This document shows positions 10,750 to 54,901 of a DNA stretch of 64,000 nucleotides, in pieces. Within the stretch, counting starts at the first letter, position 1; every line of letters begins with the position of its first letter. The notes below the pieces were generated by a model. That model made no database searches. It saw nothing but the letters and a program-made list of their open reading frames with translations, and was not told where the DNA came from. The stretch spans positions 27,097 to 91,096 of the forward strand of contig JBAYKD010000001.1 of NCBI GenBank assembly GCA_041664745.1, given 5' to 3'. This DNA is from Minisyncoccota bacterium (GTDB taxonomy: Bacteria; Patescibacteriota; Minisyncoccia; Phycocordibacterales; UBA9973). The translations under genes were made by a program, and so were the position numbers.

Positions 10750-11886
10750 TTATTCTACTTCCTTTTTTGCTACATCATCCAAGTGAACTAAGGTCATCCT
10801 TTGATCTTTTGACTCAAATAGTGTGATTTGGAAATTGTAAGTTTTACCAAGTTCCAAAGTTTTCTTTAGCTTCTCTTCAGAACCGAAGCTTGAATTGTGA
10901 ACGAGTCCAGCAACTCCTTGTTTGATAGAAACGAGAGCACCATGTTTGTTGAACTTGATGACAACTCCTGAGACTATATCTCCCTTTTTAAGTTTATTTT
11001 CAAATTCTTTCCATGGGTTTTCTTTAAGAGCTTTTATCGATAAGGAAATCTTACCATCTTTAATATCAATAATTTTAGCCTTAATTTTGTCTCCAATCTT
11101 AAACATAGTCCTTGGATCTTCTACTAGACCCCAATCAATTTCAGATATGTGGACAAGTCCTTCAAGACCTTCTTCAACTTTAAGGAATATACCAAAGTCT
11201 ACGATTCCAGCGACAGTACATTCTATCTCATCGCCAACACCATACTTACCGATAATCTCTTTGCGTTCTTCTGGATTATTGTCTTTCTCAGAGAAGATAA
11301 GCTTGCCTTCTTTTGGAAGAGCAGAGATCATCACTACGTTGATACGCTTACCAACAAGCATTTTCAAAGCTTTCAAAATTTTATCCTTATCTGAATCCTC
11401 TACGCGAGGATAGTGCTCACTCTTAAGTTGACTTGCAGGAAGGAATCCAGCAATACCTTGCCAGTCGAGTATAAGTCCACCTTTGTTTGCTTCTTTAACA
11501 ACAAGTTCAAGAGGCATTTTAGATTTAATAGCTTTGTCAGCTTCACTCCAAATGAGTGCCTGCTTAGCTTCTTTCAAAGACAATTCAATATAACCTTCAT
11601 CGTTATCTGTACCGGTTACTTTTGCTTTTACGAAGTCGCCGATATTTATCTTTTTGATTATATCTTTGGCATTTATAAATTCACGTCCATATATGATACC
11701 TGTTCCAAATGGAGCGAGGTCAATATAAACTGAAGATTTCTGTATAGAAATAACAGGACCTTCTACGAGGGCATCCACTTGTGGTGGAAGATCTGCTTTA
11801 TCAAGCATTTTACCAATACTTGAAAGTTCAATTTTTGCATGTTCTGCGATGCTTGCAACTACATCATTTTCATCTTTCTTTGTCAT
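10750..11886 (-). CDS. rpsA: 30S ribosomal protein S1-like (four S1/OB repeats)
   Basis: 378 aa with repeated G..V.G.V......G.F(V/I)....GL.H.SE type modules. Confidence 0.85.
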   Translation of the reverse strand: MTKKDENDVVASIAEHAKIELSSIGKMLDKADLPPQVDALVEGPVISIQKSSVYIDLAPFGTGIIYGREFINAKDIIKKINIGDFVKAKVTGTDNDEGYIELSLKEAKQALIWSEADKAIKSKMPLELVVKEANKGGLILDWQGIAGFLPASQLKSEHYPRVEDSDKDKILKALKMLVGKRINVVMISALPKEGKLIFSEKDNNPEERKEIIGKYGVGDEIECTVAGIVDFGIFLKVEEGLEGLVHISEIDWGLVEDPRTMFKIGDKIKAKIIDIKDGKISLSIKALKENPWKEFENKLKKGDIVSGVVIKFNKHGALVSIKQGVAGLVHNSSFGSEEKLKKTLELGKTYNFQITLFESKDQRMTLVHLDDVAKKEVE

Positions 11887-12045
11887 AATTTCTATTGTTT
11901 TTAAAAATATAAATAAATTTATATTTTTGGAACTAAAAAAACCGCATATTGCGGCGCAGTTTGAATGTCTTTATATTGTTTGGCTTTCAAATCAAAACCA
12001 AATAAAAATAAAGGGTTAAATCCAATCTGAGCTTATAATATGATT

Positions 12046-12074
12046 ACTATACTATAAAAGGGAATATTGTGCAA
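12046..12074 (-). promoter_or_regulatory. sigma70-type promoter TTGCAC-17-TATAGT, about 150 nt upstream of the S1 gene
   Basis: Minus strand; -35 at 12074-12069, -10 at 12051-12046. Confidence 0.45.
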
Positions 12075-12081
12075 TCTCTTC

Positions 12082-12106
12082 CAGAAAGGGCCTAAGGCCC
12101 TTTCTG
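12082..12106. repeat. REP-like hairpin copy 1 (CAGAAAGGGCC TAA GGCCCTTTCTG)
   Basis: Perfect 11-bp stem with a 3-nt loop, 30 nt upstream of the transposase ORF. Confidence 0.9.
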
Positions 12107-12120
12107 TGAATTTCTATCTA

Positions 12121-12129
12121 TGATATAAT
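12121..12129 (+). promoter_or_regulatory. extended -10 box TGaTATAAT, 6 nt before the ATG at 12136
   Basis: Sequence motif. Confidence 0.55.
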
Positions 12130-12135
12130 TTAAAA

Positions 12136-12810
12136 ATGAGGAAACAACCTATTATTACAGGTGAGAACTATCATATTTATAATCGTGGTGTAGATAAACG
12201 CGATATTTTTGGTGACAAATTTGACCTAAGACGTTTTGTAGAAAGTATAAAAGAATTTAATCAAGTGGATACAATAGGAAGTTTAATTAACTTAAGAAAG
12301 ACTAAAAAGATTCAGAAAGGGCCTAAGGCCCTTTCTGAGGAGTCGCTTGTTTCAATAGTTGTATATTGTTTAAATCCAAATCATTTTCACTTTATTTTGA
12401 AGCAATCTACGGATGGTGGAATAGCTAAGTTTATGCAGAAATTGCAAAGTGGGTATACCTCATATTTTAATATTAAAAACAAACGATCCGGATCATTATT
12501 TCAAGGTACTTTTAAGGCACAGCATATAGGTAGTGAAAATTACTTCAATAAGACTCTTGGATATGTAAACAAAAATTATCAAGTTCATGATATTCCAGAA
12601 GATAAGAAAGAATTAGTATTTGCTAGTGATTATGAATACGAGAATAATAATTTTAAGATTGTTTCAAAAGTAGAAGGGAAAAGAATTTTAGAAATTTTTG
12701 GTGGAGCTGGTAGGTTTAAAAAACATTCAGATGAAATTGTGGAAATTATTAGAAAAGAAAGAGGAAAGACTTTACTTTCGGAAGATGAAAACTTACCAGA
12801 AAGGGCCTAA
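12136..12810 (+). CDS. HUH (Y1) transposase, IS200-like / REP-associated tyrosine transposase (RAYT)-like
   Basis: 224 aa. YHIYNRG start, HUH motif NHFHFIL, SLFQGTFKAQHI and GYVNKNYQVH blocks. The stop codon lies in the loop of hairpin copy 3. Confidence 0.8.
   Translation: MRKQPIITGENYHIYNRGVDKRDIFGDKFDLRRFVESIKEFNQVDTIGSLINLRKTKKIQKGPKALSEESLVSIVVYCLNPNHFHFILKQSTDGGIAKFMQKLQSGYTSYFNIKNKRSGSLFQGTFKAQHIGSENYFNKTLGYVNKNYQVHDIPEDKKELVFASDYEYENNNFKIVSKVEGKRILEIFGGAGRFKKHSDEIVEIIRKERGKTLLSEDENLPERA
12313..12337. repeat. REP-like hairpin copy 2, in frame inside the transposase ORF
   Basis: Identical 25-mer, translated as QKGPKALSE. Confidence 0.9.
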
Positions 12811-12821
12811 GGCCCTTTCTG
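12797..12821. repeat. REP-like hairpin copy 3, supplying the last 4 codons and the stop codon
   Basis: Identical 25-mer, translated in another frame as PERA*. Confidence 0.9.
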
Positions 12822-12843
12822 TATATTTTAGAAGTTAAATTTA

Positions 12844-12852
12844 TGATAGAAT
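12844..12852 (+). promoter_or_regulatory. extended -10 box TGaTAGAAT, 7 nt before the ATG at 12860
   Basis: Sequence motif. Confidence 0.5.
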
Positions 12853-12859
12853 ATACAAT

Positions 12860-13738
12860 ATGATTAATTTTGAAAAACAATTTTTTCCACAAGGAAAAGA
12901 AAGAAAAGATTTACTCAAATCTAATGCAGAAGGTATAAATAAGGCACAAGAAGAAGATAGATTGGAAATGAGGGAAAATCATAATTACGGTAATATAGAT
13001 TCACATCTTGAAAAAGAAGGTGCTAGTTTTTCTTACTTTTTCAGAAATATTTTACCAGAAGGACAAAAAGACTTACGATCTTATGTCGAATCATCATTTA
13101 AAGAAAAACAAGGTAAAGCTTTGGGTGTTGAATTTGGTGGAGTTGGTTCGAATCTTTTTCGTGGATTTAGTAAGGGGTTCTTCAAGGAAACATTTGGTAT
13201 CACATTGGCAGATCACAGGGAAAAATGGAAGACAAAAATAGATGCATACAAAAATTCAAAACATAAATTAGATCATAATGTAATTGAAGGAGATATACTT
13301 TCCGATAACTTATATGATAATTTGGAAGAAAAATTGAATGGTAGAAAAGTTGATATTATAATTGAGCGTATGTTTCTAGGGATAGAATTTATGCCAGCTG
13401 AACCATATAAACTGTCAAGCATTTTGGAGAAGTGGTATGTAATGCTTAATGAAGGTGGAATTATGTTTATTCAATCACCTGTAGTATTTAATAATCTTTT
13501 AGATAAGTGGGCAGAAATGCTTCATGATAAATATATAGATAGTATTGAATTTCAATATGAGAAAGGAATACATGATGCTGCTGTTGAGAATGAAGGATAT
13601 TCGTCTTTTCGTTTACGCAAATTAAAGGGAGCACCTAAAGATTTACCTTTTTTAGATTCAAAAACAGTAGCAAGAACAGAAAAATGGATTTCTTCAGAAA
13701 AAGAGAAAAGTAAAAATTTTGATTGGTATTTAAAGTAA
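12860..13738 (+). CDS. hypothetical protein, possibly a divergent Rossmann/methyltransferase-like fold
   Basis: 292-aa ORF. Weak motif-I-like LGVEFGGVGSN and a later LNEGGIMFIQSP segment. No confident family recognised. Confidence 0.6.
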   Translation: MINFEKQFFPQGKERKDLLKSNAEGINKAQEEDRLEMRENHNYGNIDSHLEKEGASFSYFFRNILPEGQKDLRSYVESSFKEKQGKALGVEFGGVGSNLFRGFSKGFFKETFGITLADHREKWKTKIDAYKNSKHKLDHNVIEGDILSDNLYDNLEEKLNGRKVDIIIERMFLGIEFMPAEPYKLSSILEKWYVMLNEGGIMFIQSPVVFNNLLDKWAEMLHDKYIDSIEFQYEKGIHDAAVENEGYSSFRLRKLKGAPKDLPFLDSKTVARTEKWISSEKEKSKNFDWYLK

Positions 13739-17149: not shown

Positions 17150-17157
17150 CATAAATC

Positions 17158-17185
17158 AAAAAATCCCCCATATGGGGGATTTTTT
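17158..17185. terminator. bidirectional terminator (AAAAAATCCCCCATATGGGGGATTTTTT)
   Basis: Perfect 28-nt palindrome between tRNA-Phe (+) and the hsp20 gene (-). Confidence 0.8.
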
Positions 17186-17187
17186 GA

Positions 17188-17691
17188 TTATATTGATTTT
17201 ACTTTCAACTTCGTTTCTTTATTCTTATCTATTTTTGGTAATTTAATAATTAAGAGTCCATGCTTCTCAATAGCTTCAGCTTCTTCTGGATTAACTTCTT
17301 CAGGTAATGCGATAGTTCTTGAAAATGTCCCCCAGAAAAGTTCTTGAACAAAATAATTTTCTCTACTGATTGATTGATTCTCCTCTCTTTTACCTTGAAT
17401 AGTTATAGAATCTCTCGTTATATTTATGGTTAAATTGTCTGGATGTACTCCTGCTATCATAGCTTGAACGATGATTTCACTATTTGTCTGGTATAAGTCT
17501 ATGGTAAGCTCTGCTTCTTGATCTTCATCCCACTTAGAATCTTTCTCTTTATTTACTAATTTTTCTGAGTCTCTGATATTTAGATTTATTTTTTTAATAG
17601 AATTAGAAGAGGATCCAGCTTGTTCTTCTTCCTCCTGATCTTCTAAACGAATACTTCCTGTAAGGCGCTCTAAAAATGATCTTTTTTTCAT
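17188..17691 (-). CDS. small heat-shock protein (Hsp20/alpha-crystallin family)
   Basis: 167 aa. Alpha-crystallin domain LTIDLYQT..IVQAMIAGV...ITIQGKRE...F.RTIALPEEV...GLLIIKLPK. Confidence 0.88.
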   Translation of the reverse strand: MKKRSFLERLTGSIRLEDQEEEEQAGSSSNSIKKINLNIRDSEKLVNKEKDSKWDEDQEAELTIDLYQTNSEIIVQAMIAGVHPDNLTINITRDSITIQGKREENQSISRENYFVQELFWGTFSRTIALPEEVNPEEAEAIEKHGLLIIKLPKIDKNKETKLKVKSI

Positions 17692-27785: not shown

Positions 27786-29120
27786 ATGACAGAACTTGAT
27801 TTAAAGACAATTAAAAACGTTCATTTTATAGGAATCGGAGGGATTGGAATCTCGGCGGTGGCTAGGATGATGCTTCATGATGGGAAGAAAGTGAGCGGGC
27901 AGGATATGCAAGGTGGGGAAATAGTAGAGGAACTTATAAAGCTAGGTATAGATATTAAAATAGGTCAGTCTTATGAGAATATACCAGAAGATACTGATTT
28001 GATAGTCTATACTATTGCTATAGATACTTACGATAAAGAACTTGCAGATAAGATAAAAGCTCAAGATATTGTGCCTGTCCGTTCATATCCACAAATGTTG
28101 GATATTATAAGTCGTGATAAATATACGATTGCAGTATCAGGAACTCATGGCAAGACGACAACGACAGCAATGATCGCACAGATATTAGGTGAAGATGGGG
28201 AAGACCCTTCTGTCATAGTTGGAAGTTTAATTAAAAATAAAGATGGCACTCGTTCTAACTTTATATATGGTAAAAGTAAATATCTAGTGGTAGAAGCATG
28301 TGAATACAGAAGATCATTTTTAAATATTAATCCGAAAGTTCTAGTTATTACAAATATAGATGAAGATCATCTTGATTATTACAAAGATATAGAAGATATA
28401 AAAAATGCATTCCATGAGATGGCAATGAAAGTACCTACCGATGGATTTGTTGTTTGTAATCCAAATGATAAAAATATTGCTGATGTAACAAAAGATATAA
28501 AAGCAAAAGTTATAAATTGGGAAGAATTTTATAATAGTGAATTGAAGTTAAAAATTCCAGGAATTCATAATAAGAAGGATGCAGCGGCGGCTATAGCCGC
28601 CGCTGCCACTTTGGAAATTTCCAAAGAAGTAGCAGAGAAATATGTTGTGAATTTCCCAGGTACATGGCGACGATTTGAATTCAAAGGGAAGCTCTCAAAT
28701 GGAGTTTTTATTTACGATGATTACGCTCACCATCCCGTAGAAATTACTTCTACACTCGAAGGCTTTAGAGAATTGTACTCTAAGGCGGACGGATGGAAAT
28801 TAACAATAGTCTTTCAACCTCATTTATTTAGTCGTACAAAATTACTTTTAAACGACTTTGCACAAAGTTTCAAAGATGCAGACAAGGTTTTAATTCTACC
28901 AATTTATTACGCAAGAGAAGTTGATGATGGGACTATTTCCTCAAATGTCTTAATGAGTGAGATAAATAAATACTCGAACAATGGAGAGGCCTTTTCCTCT
29001 TTTGAAGAATTAGAGAAATATCTAGAATTAGGGCTCTCTCATATGGGGGAAAAGGATATAATAGTGACTATGGGCGCTGGGGAAGCCTTTAAGGTTGGGG
29101 ACTTCCTTTTAAAAAATTAA
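27786..29120 (+). CDS. murC: UDP-N-acetylmuramate--L-alanine ligase
   Basis: 444 aa. HFIGIGGIGISAVARMM, SGTHGKTTTTAMIA, DDYAHHP. Confidence 0.94.
   Translation: MTELDLKTIKNVHFIGIGGIGISAVARMMLHDGKKVSGQDMQGGEIVEELIKLGIDIKIGQSYENIPEDTDLIVYTIAIDTYDKELADKIKAQDIVPVRSYPQMLDIISRDKYTIAVSGTHGKTTTTAMIAQILGEDGEDPSVIVGSLIKNKDGTRSNFIYGKSKYLVVEACEYRRSFLNINPKVLVITNIDEDHLDYYKDIEDIKNAFHEMAMKVPTDGFVVCNPNDKNIADVTKDIKAKVINWEEFYNSELKLKIPGIHNKKDAAAAIAAAATLEISKEVAEKYVVNFPGTWRRFEFKGKLSNGVFIYDDYAHHPVEITSTLEGFRELYSKADGWKLTIVFQPHLFSRTKLLLNDFAQSFKDADKVLILPIYYAREVDDGTISSNVLMSEINKYSNNGEAFSSFEELEKYLELGLSHMGEKDIIVTMGAGEAFKVGDFLLKN
28581..28606. repeat. perfect 26-nt GC-rich palindrome inside murC (GCAGCGGCGGCTA TAGCCGCCGCTGC)
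   Basis: Encodes AAAAIAAAA in the HN..A.AA.A region of MurC. Confidence 0.7.
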
Positions 29121-45775: not shown

Positions 45776-46213
45776 ATGAAAATTATTTTAACAACAGATG
45801 TGCCAAAGATGGGTAATAAATATGATGTAAAAGATTTTAAGAATGGATATGCGAACCTTCTCATATCTAAAGGTTTAGCTATCCTTGCGACTCCGGCTGC
45901 ACTTTCTAATTTAGAAAACATGAAAAAGGAAGGAGAGAAAAAGAAAGAGGAAGGAATGAAAGCTTTCGATTCGCTTGTCTCATCTATAAATAACACAAAG
46001 TTGAACATAAAAGTTAAAGCTAATGAGAAGGGTCATTTATTCAAAGCTGTCGGTCCTCGCGATATAGTGGAGGCTGTGAAAAAAGTAACGGGTGTAGACA
46101 TAGATGAAAGATCAATAGTTATGGAACATATAAAAGAAATAGGTACTCATAAAATAGAAATCAAAAAGGGAAGTAAGAAGGGAATATGCGAGGTGATAAT
46201 AGAGAAAGAATAA
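45776..46213 (+). CDS. rplI: 50S ribosomal protein L9
   Basis: 145 aa. MKIILTTDVPKMGNKYDVKDFKNGYANLLISKGLA. Confidence 0.92.
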   Translation: MKIILTTDVPKMGNKYDVKDFKNGYANLLISKGLAILATPAALSNLENMKKEGEKKKEEGMKAFDSLVSSINNTKLNIKVKANEKGHLFKAVGPRDIVEAVKKVTGVDIDERSIVMEHIKEIGTHKIEIKKGSKKGICEVIIEKE

Positions 46214-46255
46214 AAGTAAAAATCTCTGACACATGTGTCAGAGATTTTTACTTTT
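46212..46255. terminator. 44-nt perfect palindrome, bidirectional terminator between rplI and rpmA
   Basis: AAAAGTAAAAATCTCTGACACA|TGTGTCAGAGATTTTTACTTTT. It overlaps both stop codons. Confidence 0.85.
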
Positions 46256-46526
46256 AGATTACGTGAACTATTTTTTTAACGGATGATGTTCGGTTGAAGT
46301 TTACTTTTCTTTTTGTACCGTATTTGATTGTTCCAGGTTTTAAAGCAAATAATGTGTGATCTTTACCTAGTCCAACATTATTACCAGGGAGAATTTTAGT
46401 ACCTCTTTGGCGAATAATGATTGATCCTGCTTTCGCAATTTCACCAGCGTAAAGTTTCGTACCTAAGTACTTTGGATTTGAATCTGTTAAGTTTTTAGCC
46501 GATCCACCGGCTTTTCGATGTGCCAT
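46254..46526 (-). CDS. rpmA: 50S ribosomal protein L27
   Basis: 90 aa. [33 protein letters not shown]. Confidence 0.95.
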
Positions 46527-54634: not shown

Positions 54635-54796
54635 ATGGACAAAGACGAAGAAACAATTAAAGAGGTAAAAGAACCTATTTGTCCTCGTTGTGGTCTACGT
54701 TCTTACGATGAGGTTTGCCAGAATTGTGGCACTCCTATTGTGGACAATAAAGACGACGAAGAGGAAGATACAAATTGGCGCGAGAAGTATAGATAA
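54635..54796 (+). CDS. small zinc-ribbon protein with acidic tails
   Basis: 53 aa. CPRCG...CQNCG. The ATG at 54635 is preferred over the track start at 54599. Confidence 0.65.
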   Translation: MDKDEETIKEVKEPICPRCGLRSYDEVCQNCGTPIVDNKDDEEEDTNWREKYR

Positions 54797-54832
54797 TCAA
54801 AAGCACCGCGACGTACGTCGCGGTGCTTTTGA
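54797..54832. terminator. 36-nt perfect GC-rich palindrome, bidirectional terminator
   Basis: TCAAAAGCACCGCGACGT|ACGTCGCGGTGCTTTTGA, immediately after the stop codon. Confidence 0.85.
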
Positions 54833-54838
54833 TTTGAT

Positions 54839-54901
54839 TTACTTTTTTACTACTTTCTTTGGTTTCTTAACTTCTTTTCTGTGACCATCTCCTTTTGCCA
54901 T
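54839..54901 (-). CDS. possible 20-aa basic peptide MAKGDGHRKEVKKPKKVVKK
   Basis: ATG ORF on the minus strand ending 6 nt before the bidirectional terminator. Speculative. Confidence 0.25.
   Translation of the reverse strand: MAKGDGHRKEVKKPKKVVKK

Follow-up and report, generated by a model that had tools for sequence, protein, structure and literature searches.

In the arrangement called a REPtron, a gene for a repetitive extragenic palindrome (REP)-associated tyrosine transposase (RAYT, or TnpA(REP)) lies between its cognate REP hairpins (PMC3116915, PMC3479197, PMC6006769). The last of these papers gives Y-x-x-x-N as the catalytic spacing of class 2 TnpA-Y1 proteins, with the Asn as a metal ligand, and names REPs lying in frame inside the tnpA(REP) gene as a hallmark of subclass 2.4; an enzyme gene pierced by its own palindrome is thus not a new idea. 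The function of RAYTs and the copying of REPs are difficult to study, since REPs are dispersed and heterogeneous and number in the hundreds. Here we describe a small Y1 HUH enzyme gene accompanied by three identical perfect hairpins, in a 64,000-nucleotide stretch of DNA from an ultra-small Minisyncoccota bacterium (assembly GCA_041664745.1, contig JBAYKD010000001.1, positions 27,097 to 91,096), hereafter the window. The features of the locus, in window coordinates, are as follows.

12082..12106, no strand: upstream hairpin U, a perfect palindrome at about -54 to -30 from the start codon, over the promoter -35 region
12121..12129, + strand: extended -10 element TGaTATAAT, ending 6 nt 5' of the ATG; predicted start of a leaderless mRNA at ~12136
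12136..12810, + strand: open reading frame (ORF) of 224 aa, for a protein resembling Y1 HUH single-stranded DNA (ssDNA) nucleases/transposases of the TnpA-Y1 superfamily, with a RAYT-like fold and a C-terminal helical extension
12313..12337, no strand: internal hairpin I1, a further copy of the 25-mer, translated in frame into residues Q60-S67, which belong to the loop linking helix A to the strand ahead of the HUH strand
12382..12390, + strand: HUH motif H83-F84-H85, in strand 83-90 of the structural model
12562..12576, + strand: catalytic Tyr helix motif Y143-V-N-K-N147 (within GYVNKNY), in helix 134-150 of the model
12797..12821, no strand: terminal hairpin T, again the 25-mer; P221-A224 (P-E-R-A) are encoded by the 5' arm, and the loop TAA (12808-12810) serves as stop codon

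The 25-mer, CAGAAAGGGCC-TAA-GGCCCTTTCTG (CAGAAAGGGCCTAAGGCCCTTTCTG when written whole), is present in three exact copies on the + strand, each made of an 11-bp perfect stem and the loop TAA. A sequence-only reading of the window had noticed these copies and their common loop orientation and had found no other; exact and three-mismatch scans bore this out, as no fourth copy was detected anywhere in the 64 kb even when 3 mismatches were allowed (0.00 expected from 100 shuffles). When folded as ssDNA, each hairpin reached -12 to -13 kcal/mol (z about -5 to -6.5), U giving -13.1 kcal/mol (z -6.5). The 3' end of U lies 29 nt 5' of the ATG at 12136, and the placing of this copy upstream of the ORF, followed by the TGaTATAAT box, proved correct, as did the in-frame read-through of the second copy and the use of the third loop as stop codon (PERA*). 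I1 begins precisely at codon 60 and is translated as Q-K-G-P-K-A-L-S. At this site the palindrome grows to 27 nt (12312-12338), and a reversed loop would yield an in-frame TAG (CCT TAG).

We regard this locus, with moderate confidence, as a compact, ancient, mostly vertically inherited and rarely mobile cassette of REPtron/IS200-like type, in which the palindromes would be the enzyme's own ssDNA stem-loop sites and U would double as a promoter control or insulation element.

The orthologue sample consisted of 80 metagenome loci (43-85% amino acid identity) and of L003, from a GTDB genome (88%). Nearly all of these loci carried their own GC-rich perfect or near-perfect palindrome at -60..-15, at +165..+210, and at or just past the stop codon. 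In a distant clade (~45-55% identity) the internal palindrome was found elsewhere, at +440..+490 (I2), and L077 and L079 harboured four hairpin copies. Element lengths ranged from 25 to 43 nt, with stems reaching 14-20 bp within coding sequence in L057, L059 and L047. About 47 different 8-nt stem cores were counted over 69 loci, whereas arms from the same locus were identical in 36/40 comparisons between I1 and T, 35/40 between U and I1 and 36/44 between U and T. GC-rich perfect hairpins reached a density of 1.98 per kb within the gene unit, versus 0.136 per kb in 494 kb of flanking DNA (~15x). Contigs encoding an identical protein showed no strain-level differences in the unit.

When 49 distinct T-site hairpins were aligned without gaps, 10 of the 11 stem pairs varied on both sides, and one G:C pair, the fifth counted from the loop, was invariant. 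Private compensated pairs occurred in single hairpin copies (T of L027; L033; L049), indicating that pairing is selected site by site, beyond the sameness between sites. Aligned proteins showed covariation of internal segment and C-terminal tail (QKGPK with PERA*, IAPK with PDSA*, ESK with PDRV*), and tails such as PDSALGAIW resembled a hairpin read through a flipped loop. Loop orientation flipped freely, save where an in-frame stop would arise (CCT TAG at I1, in the window's clade). A fixed REPIN-like inversion of U relative to T was considered and abandoned, the data showing merely a weak tendency (25 inverted, 18 same).

Several orthologous loci displayed additional structures. REPIN-like doublets (two inverted hairpins a few nt apart) and half-site tandem arrays adjoined the gene at T or U sites in L013, L053, L062, L063 and L078, and upstream in L045, L024, L015 and L076. 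A G-rich tract (GGGGATTGA..., GGATTTTGAGGGG...), absent from the window, directly followed the T hairpin on its 3' side in L005, L009, L019, L025, L029, L032 and L033; it resembles the TIRYT element ends GGGG[AT][CG]A[CG] given in PMC6006769.

The divergence of the window, L003 and L004 was then set against that of their hairpins. The synonymous distance (dS) was 0.9-1.2, near saturation, with a third-position identity of 62-67% and a nonsynonymous to synonymous ratio (dN/dS) of ~0.08. In the same trio, the coding hairpins diverged by 0-1 nt, and the non-coding U varied at the central loop base only. The HUH gene is under strong purifying selection and is not decaying, and its hairpin nucleotides are constrained as nucleotides. 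Since the hairpins are unchanged at dS ~1 while dN/dS is ~0.08, they are ancient and selected rather than recent strikes on a decaying gene. The 'transposase' of many Paceibacteria annotations is therefore a conserved gene under purifying selection, not insertion sequence debris.

The position of the hairpins in the protein was examined on an AlphaFold2 model (mean pLDDT, the predicted local confidence, 73.5). Residues 60-67, encoded by I1, overlap a low-confidence loop (47-66, pLDDT below 50), T encodes the last four residues of a predicted disordered tail (212-224, pLDDT below 50), and I2 of the distant clade maps directly behind the catalytic helix. Loops were equally long in orthologues with and without I1 or I2, indicating that the palindromes overwrite flexible linkers and do not lengthen them. 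I1 and I2 had also been considered as discrete presence/absence insertions of 9-14 aa, which was rejected because loop lengths are similar with and without a hairpin.

These observations bear on the proposal, favoured by the sequence-only reading, that a dispersed REP family recently struck its own RAYT gene, which would be tolerant or decaying. In a single genome, the in-frame copy and the loop stop do resemble insertions, and one solo copy (in L001, see below) lies away from any HUH gene. We nevertheless consider this proposal extremely improbable. The hairpin positions are kept in about 80 orthologues, down to ~45% identity, so that the hits are neither recent nor lineage-specific. QKGPKALS and PERA have counterparts in all orthologues that co-vary with each locus's hairpin. 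The supposed decay does not agree with the strong purifying selection and the conserved catalytic residues, and the third copy contributes the stop codon and only the last 3-4 residues. Finally, no extra copies were found in the window or in the sister genome, and the hairpins overwrite rather than insert.

The protein itself was matched above threshold by the Pfam model PF01797 (Y1_Tnp; 32.6 bits over residues 56-146, cut-off 23). The best Foldseek match of the model was 4ER8, the E. coli REP-associated nuclease with its REP hairpin (E 7.9e-5, target TM score 0.59), followed by the IS608, IS200 and ISDra2 TnpA proteins, hairpin complexes among them. The HUH motif and the GYVNKNY block pointed out in the sequence-only reading were found at the coordinates listed above and in the orthologue alignment. 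Across 30 aligned orthologues, N82, F84 and H85 were invariant and H83 was retained in at least 90%; Y143, N145, N147 and Y148 were all invariant. The Tyr motif is thus Y-x-x-x-N as in class 2 TnpA-Y1, yet the invariant Y148 replaces the usual P. The NCBIfam model transpos_IS200 was missed (15.5 bits, cut-off 55). A word-indexed search retrieved ~2900 homologues of 220-230 aa (clusters at 90% identity), and an exhaustive search of clusters at 50% identity gave 137 with E <1e-30 and 2511 with E <1e-10. All named family matches were Paceibacteria/Nomurabacteria-type members of the candidate phyla radiation (CPR); our search of the literature for RAYTs or Y1 transposases in CPR retrieved no description.

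We then considered the relation of U to the promoter. In 45 of 73 loci, a TAnnnT hexamer terminated exactly 6 nt upstream of the start codon, and a TG extension was present in 47, while a Shine-Dalgarno (SD)-like motif was found upstream of the HUH gene in none of the 73. This -10 spacing without SD suggests that the mRNA is most likely leaderless, with transcription starting at ~12136, which would leave U outside the transcript, over the -35/spacer region. An SD-like 4-mer was present at -16..-4 in 2 of the 38 window ORFs of at least 200 aa; the genome seems to use SD sequences little, and the missing SD is therefore uninformative alone. U abuts the -10 element in many loci. The tightest overlap of hairpin and promoter was observed at L084:2961-3000, in the Nomurabacteria paralogue P0039, where the U 3' arm provides the TG of the extended -10 (CTATCTGGTATAAT).

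The palindrome over the -35/spacer region in essentially all loci, at times providing the -10 TG, could also be explained by duplex palindromic operators, through which the protein (e.g. its C-terminal helical domain) or another dimeric regulator would repress the gene without ssDNA cleavage. The invariant stem G:C pair would suit a protein reading sequence, and the function appears to be independent of orientation. However, the spacing between the centres of U and I1 varies from ~208 to 240 bp without helical phasing, and for this reason DNA looping between operators was rejected. A Pfam search with the C-terminal 74 residues gave no match and no recognisable DNA-binding domain. The conservation of the catalytic HUH, Y and N residues suggests selection for catalysis beyond binding, and the 14-20-bp coding stems suit hairpin stability better than half-sites. 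We therefore consider an operator role of this kind very unlikely.

At the other end of the gene, the stop codon was located relative to the T hairpin in 60 loci. In 24 of them it fell in the loop, 6 had it in the 5' arm, and for another 21 the hairpin followed the stop within 12 nt; in 4 loci a flipped or altered loop let translation continue through the 3' arm. This varying placement indicates that the DNA palindrome, not the peptide, is conserved.

Hairpins in such positions may also be RNA-level cis elements (terminators or insulators, stabilisers of the mRNA 3' end, translation brakes), tolerated in or recruited around the gene independently of the enzyme's activity. The T copy of the window, followed by TATATTTT, has a terminator-like score, and REPs elsewhere affect mRNA stability, according to PMC3479197. 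On the antisense strand of I1 (window 12312-12338, minus), a T-rich tract followed in 37 of 48 loci versus a 16% background; it resembles an antisense intrinsic terminator, yet may instead follow from conservation of the Lys/Arg-rich peptide NLRK(T/S)K. On the other hand, T-rich tails after U and T were found in ~20-25% of loci on either strand, against a background of ~15%, and classical terminators were rejected as a general explanation. No RNA or strand signature was left by wobble pairs at non-coding sites, where G.T and A.C mismatches were symmetric (20:18 at U, 14:15 at T), and the sense strand showed no G.U excess; an A.C excess at I1 is due to synonymous G-to-A changes (AAG to AAA). 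The location of U upstream of the predicted mRNA start, the symmetric mismatches and the free loop flips do not fit a strand-specific RNA element. A general signal would have no need of one sequence at three sites, nor would it be expected to differ from one Y1 gene to another 5 kb away, and other genes should have it too, which they do not. An Rfam scan of window positions 11500-13500 returned nothing except sub-threshold miRNA noise on the T hairpin. Taken together, this makes an explanation at the RNA level distinctly unlikely.

The distribution of the hairpin outside the gene was analyzed at several scales. The copies that the sequence-only reading expected elsewhere in the genome were missing from the remaining 63 kb of the window. 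When all GTDB species genomes were scanned for the stem, whatever its loop, three contigs matched. The whole assembly of the sister metagenome-assembled genome (MAG) JAENWX01 contained exactly three copies, all associated with the gene. A solo hairpin, TTTCCAGAAAGGGCC-TTA-GGCCCTTTCTGGAAA, was detected at L001:4050-4074 in MAG JBAYKP01 (Paceibacterota), between aldolase-like and bL25-like genes and upstream of the latter. The 4 kb around it contain no HUH gene, and no other copy remote from the gene was seen. The third contig, L002 (Deltaproteobacteria), was taken as unrelated, its sequence being GC-rich. When each locus was searched with its own arms (up to 2 mismatches, 494 kb of flanks), few extra copies appeared, mostly within 1.5 kb upstream (L047, L057, L038, L007). 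No dispersed extragenic population was thus found in the window, the sister MAG or the 494 kb of ortholog flanks, a handful of distant copies in the source genome being possible. The hairpins being essentially confined to the gene, this is not a classical dispersed REP/RAYT system, though it seemingly works like one locally. Of the REP/RAYT-type system first proposed, the gene bracketed and pierced by its own palindromes therefore stands, and the dispersed copies do not.

Other long palindromes of the window, perfect or near-perfect, are unrelated in sequence to the 25-mer; they lie at 46211-46256 (23+23 nt, no spacer), 28581-28606 (a GC-rich 26-mer), and 17154-17189 and 54785-54844 (both terminator-like).

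The genomic context was compared between loci. Of several conserved neighbourhoods, one is common to L081 (45% identity) and L011 (72%), an argument for a long residence with vertical inheritance. The bracketing is tight, as U may begin 4-6 nt past the stop of the upstream gene and T lies at the stop codon. Within a syntenic block (BipA, sigma-like, DUF8128, YceG, RNase T, MnmA, AlaRS), three different intergenic junctions harboured the unit (L007/L015/L019/L027, L042/L044 and L028), once inverted. In the window, the left neighbours (S1 protein, Pth) are those of one locus group and the right neighbour (LepA) is that of another. Between 10072 and 15627, synteny switches exactly at the HUH gene, the left side being like L020/L025/L029/L033 and the right side (LepA and the next gene) like L003/L023; this suggests a rearrangement breakpoint at the cassette. 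A 292-aa ORF without Pfam match lies at 12860-13738, between the HUH gene and lepA; it is an extra gene in the window lineage, since lepA directly follows the HUH gene in L003.

Two family paralogues may be present in a single genome, ~73-75% identical to the query and with hairpins that are related yet distinct. L031 contains in addition, at 11961-12614 and 5 kb downstream of a family member, a distant Y1 HUH paralogue of 217 aa (NHFH, YIHLNPV, Pfam PF01797), with an extended -10 box and with hairpins of its own, one upstream and one terminal (TGCGCAAGGTT-TAA-CCTTGCGCA); no copy lies inside the gene. The three junctions and the locus-specific hairpins of the paralogues indicate that the unit moves or recombines rarely, each enzyme gene keeping its own hairpin type.

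These positions could alternatively be those of an active autonomous IS200-type element, with U and T as left and right ends moved by single-strand peel-and-paste and the internal copy as an accident or an alternative end. The tight bracketing, the three junctions with one inversion, the mixed contexts of the window and a 740-bp unit near IS200 size would all agree with such an element. We consider it unlikely, as the gene is present in a single copy in the 64 kb of the window, and paralogues from the same genome are not near-identical and carry different hairpins. Moreover, dN/dS is 0.08 in a deeply diverged family (the 137 clusters cited above), and the context is the same at 45% and 72% identity. 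The Tyr motif is Y-x-x-x-N where TnpA(IS200) has Y-x-x-x-Q, and the ends are identical perfect palindromes instead of distinct imperfect left and right hairpins.

In the cassette that we favour, the order would be hairpin, extended -10 promoter, leaderless Y1 HUH gene and hairpin. The palindromes would be recognised as stem-loops on ssDNA, as in the RAYT-REP and IS608 TnpA-end complexes, and would probably also be the sites of cleavage and rejoining by the encoded enzyme. By occupying the -35/spacer region, U could allow autoregulation, or shield the gene from transcription entering from outside. Since three copies cannot acquire the same two-arm change independently, some copy-correction must act, a step that we infer. 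Enzyme-mediated strand transfer, or template switching between palindromes close to each other, might keep the copies identical in combination with selection for their recognition by a single protein; template switching is a known mutational route for quasipalindromes. The intragenic copies would persist because overwriting flexible loops costs the protein nothing. In a stronger version, the three or four hairpins of its own gene would be the enzyme's only substrates, kept homogeneous by its cut-and-rejoin copying and gating its own promoter; we consider this version conceivable but rather unlikely.

Several results weigh against the favoured cassette. That the enzyme would bind or cut the hairpins is suggested by homology and association only. 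The NCBIfam RAYT equivalog NF047646 was missed (28.1 bits, cut-off 80), so that of the Y1/RAYT affiliation first proposed, the Pfam match and the fold of 4ER8 hold and the RAYT model does not. Identity to 4ER8 is ~12%, which makes the protein remote from characterised RAYTs. Sequence and profile searches of the PDB gave no relevant match and did not reach 4ER8, and the kinship to RAYT and IS608 proteins is thus drawn from the fold search alone. No conserved cleavage motif was seen beside the hairpins, and the GT[AG]G guide tetranucleotide is absent from the 5' foot of the window hairpin, which reads (C)CAGAAAG; some distant orthologues have GTAG inside the stem (TGTAGACGT, TGTAGGTGT). In the T-site alignment, 94% of the cells were paired, versus 30-43% with the partner slid, a percentage inflated by the choice of this set by pairing. 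Finally, some loci with weak or apex-mismatched copies, or with no recognisable I1, retain intact genes, indicating that no single hairpin site is indispensable.

New here are the distinct Y motif of a family from CPR, intragenic sites kept in place over deep divergence, a stop codon in the loop, a promoter-overlapping copy of a leaderless gene, strict identity within loci with diversity between them, and the apparent absence of dispersed REPs. The family offers a stripped-down case of the RAYT problem, in which each unit has a single small gene and its perfect hairpins, three or four in number, are identical and fixed in position. Its natural variation displays concerted and compensatory evolution, free loop flipping, tolerated translation through the hairpin and a promoter-overlapping copy. 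Hairpin recognition via the invariant G:C pair, autoregulation and enzyme-mediated homogenisation are testable with a 224-aa protein and 25-nt oligonucleotides. Should the stronger version hold, with its self-contained 'REP population of size three', an entire CPR class would conserve a RAYT/REP system that is minimal and self-referential, and the role of RAYTs would have a tractable model.

Among known systems, Rickettsia palindromic elements share with this family a palindromic DNA translated in frame within a gene, in a surface-exposed segment. These elements are ~100-150 bp long and occur in many unrelated genes with no associated enzyme gene, whereas the present hairpins are 25-43 nt long and lie nowhere but within or beside a gene for a hairpin-binding-type enzyme. 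Elements of the IS200/IS605 group (IS200, IS608, ISDra2) are closer, with a minimal unit of ~0.7 kb, hairpins at both ends of a Y1 HUH gene, a change of position within a syntenic block (here on an evolutionary time scale only) and an upstream hairpin beside the promoter; the left-end hairpin of IS200 has been described as a terminator against outside transcription. They differ by their Y-x-x-x-Q motif and by proteins of ~130-150 aa, versus 224 aa with a C-terminal extension. In addition, the unit of the window has no near-identical multiple copies and no tnpB, has the same perfect palindrome at both ends, and belongs to a family strongly purified over deep divergence.

Subclass 2.4, as characterised in PMC6006769, likewise has cognate palindromes within its own gene, with the frame intact, in a peripheral region predicted to be tolerant, plus flanking copies. 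In the present proteins, the palindromes precede HUH (I1) or come directly after the Y helix (I2), keep their position throughout the family and do not lengthen the loop, and in the window a third copy supplies the stop codon. The motifs are NHFH, FQ and YVNKNY, against NH[IFV]H, WQ and YIxNNP in subclass 2.4, whose REPs are long, 'double foot' and GTAG-tagged. An in-frame palindrome is therefore shared, but site and motifs (FQ, YVNKNY) place the protein outside the subclass as that text describes it.

The closest likeness is to the REPtron, from which the family nevertheless departs in several respects. It has no dispersed extragenic population that we could find; the window hairpin lacks the GT[AG]G foot, and short, perfect stems enclose a 3-nt loop; the protein is under the NCBIfam RAYT cut-off, with Y-V-N-K-N-Y instead of Y-x-x-x-N-P and an extra C-terminal helical region of 75 residues; and its hosts are CPR/Paceibacteria, names that do not occur in the 2018 classification (PMC6006769). 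With the REPtron it shares the Y1 HUH fold and the Y-x-x-x-N catalytic helix, a low copy number with mainly vertical inheritance, and GC-rich flanking palindromes that are specific for their gene even when two Y1 genes are present in one genome.

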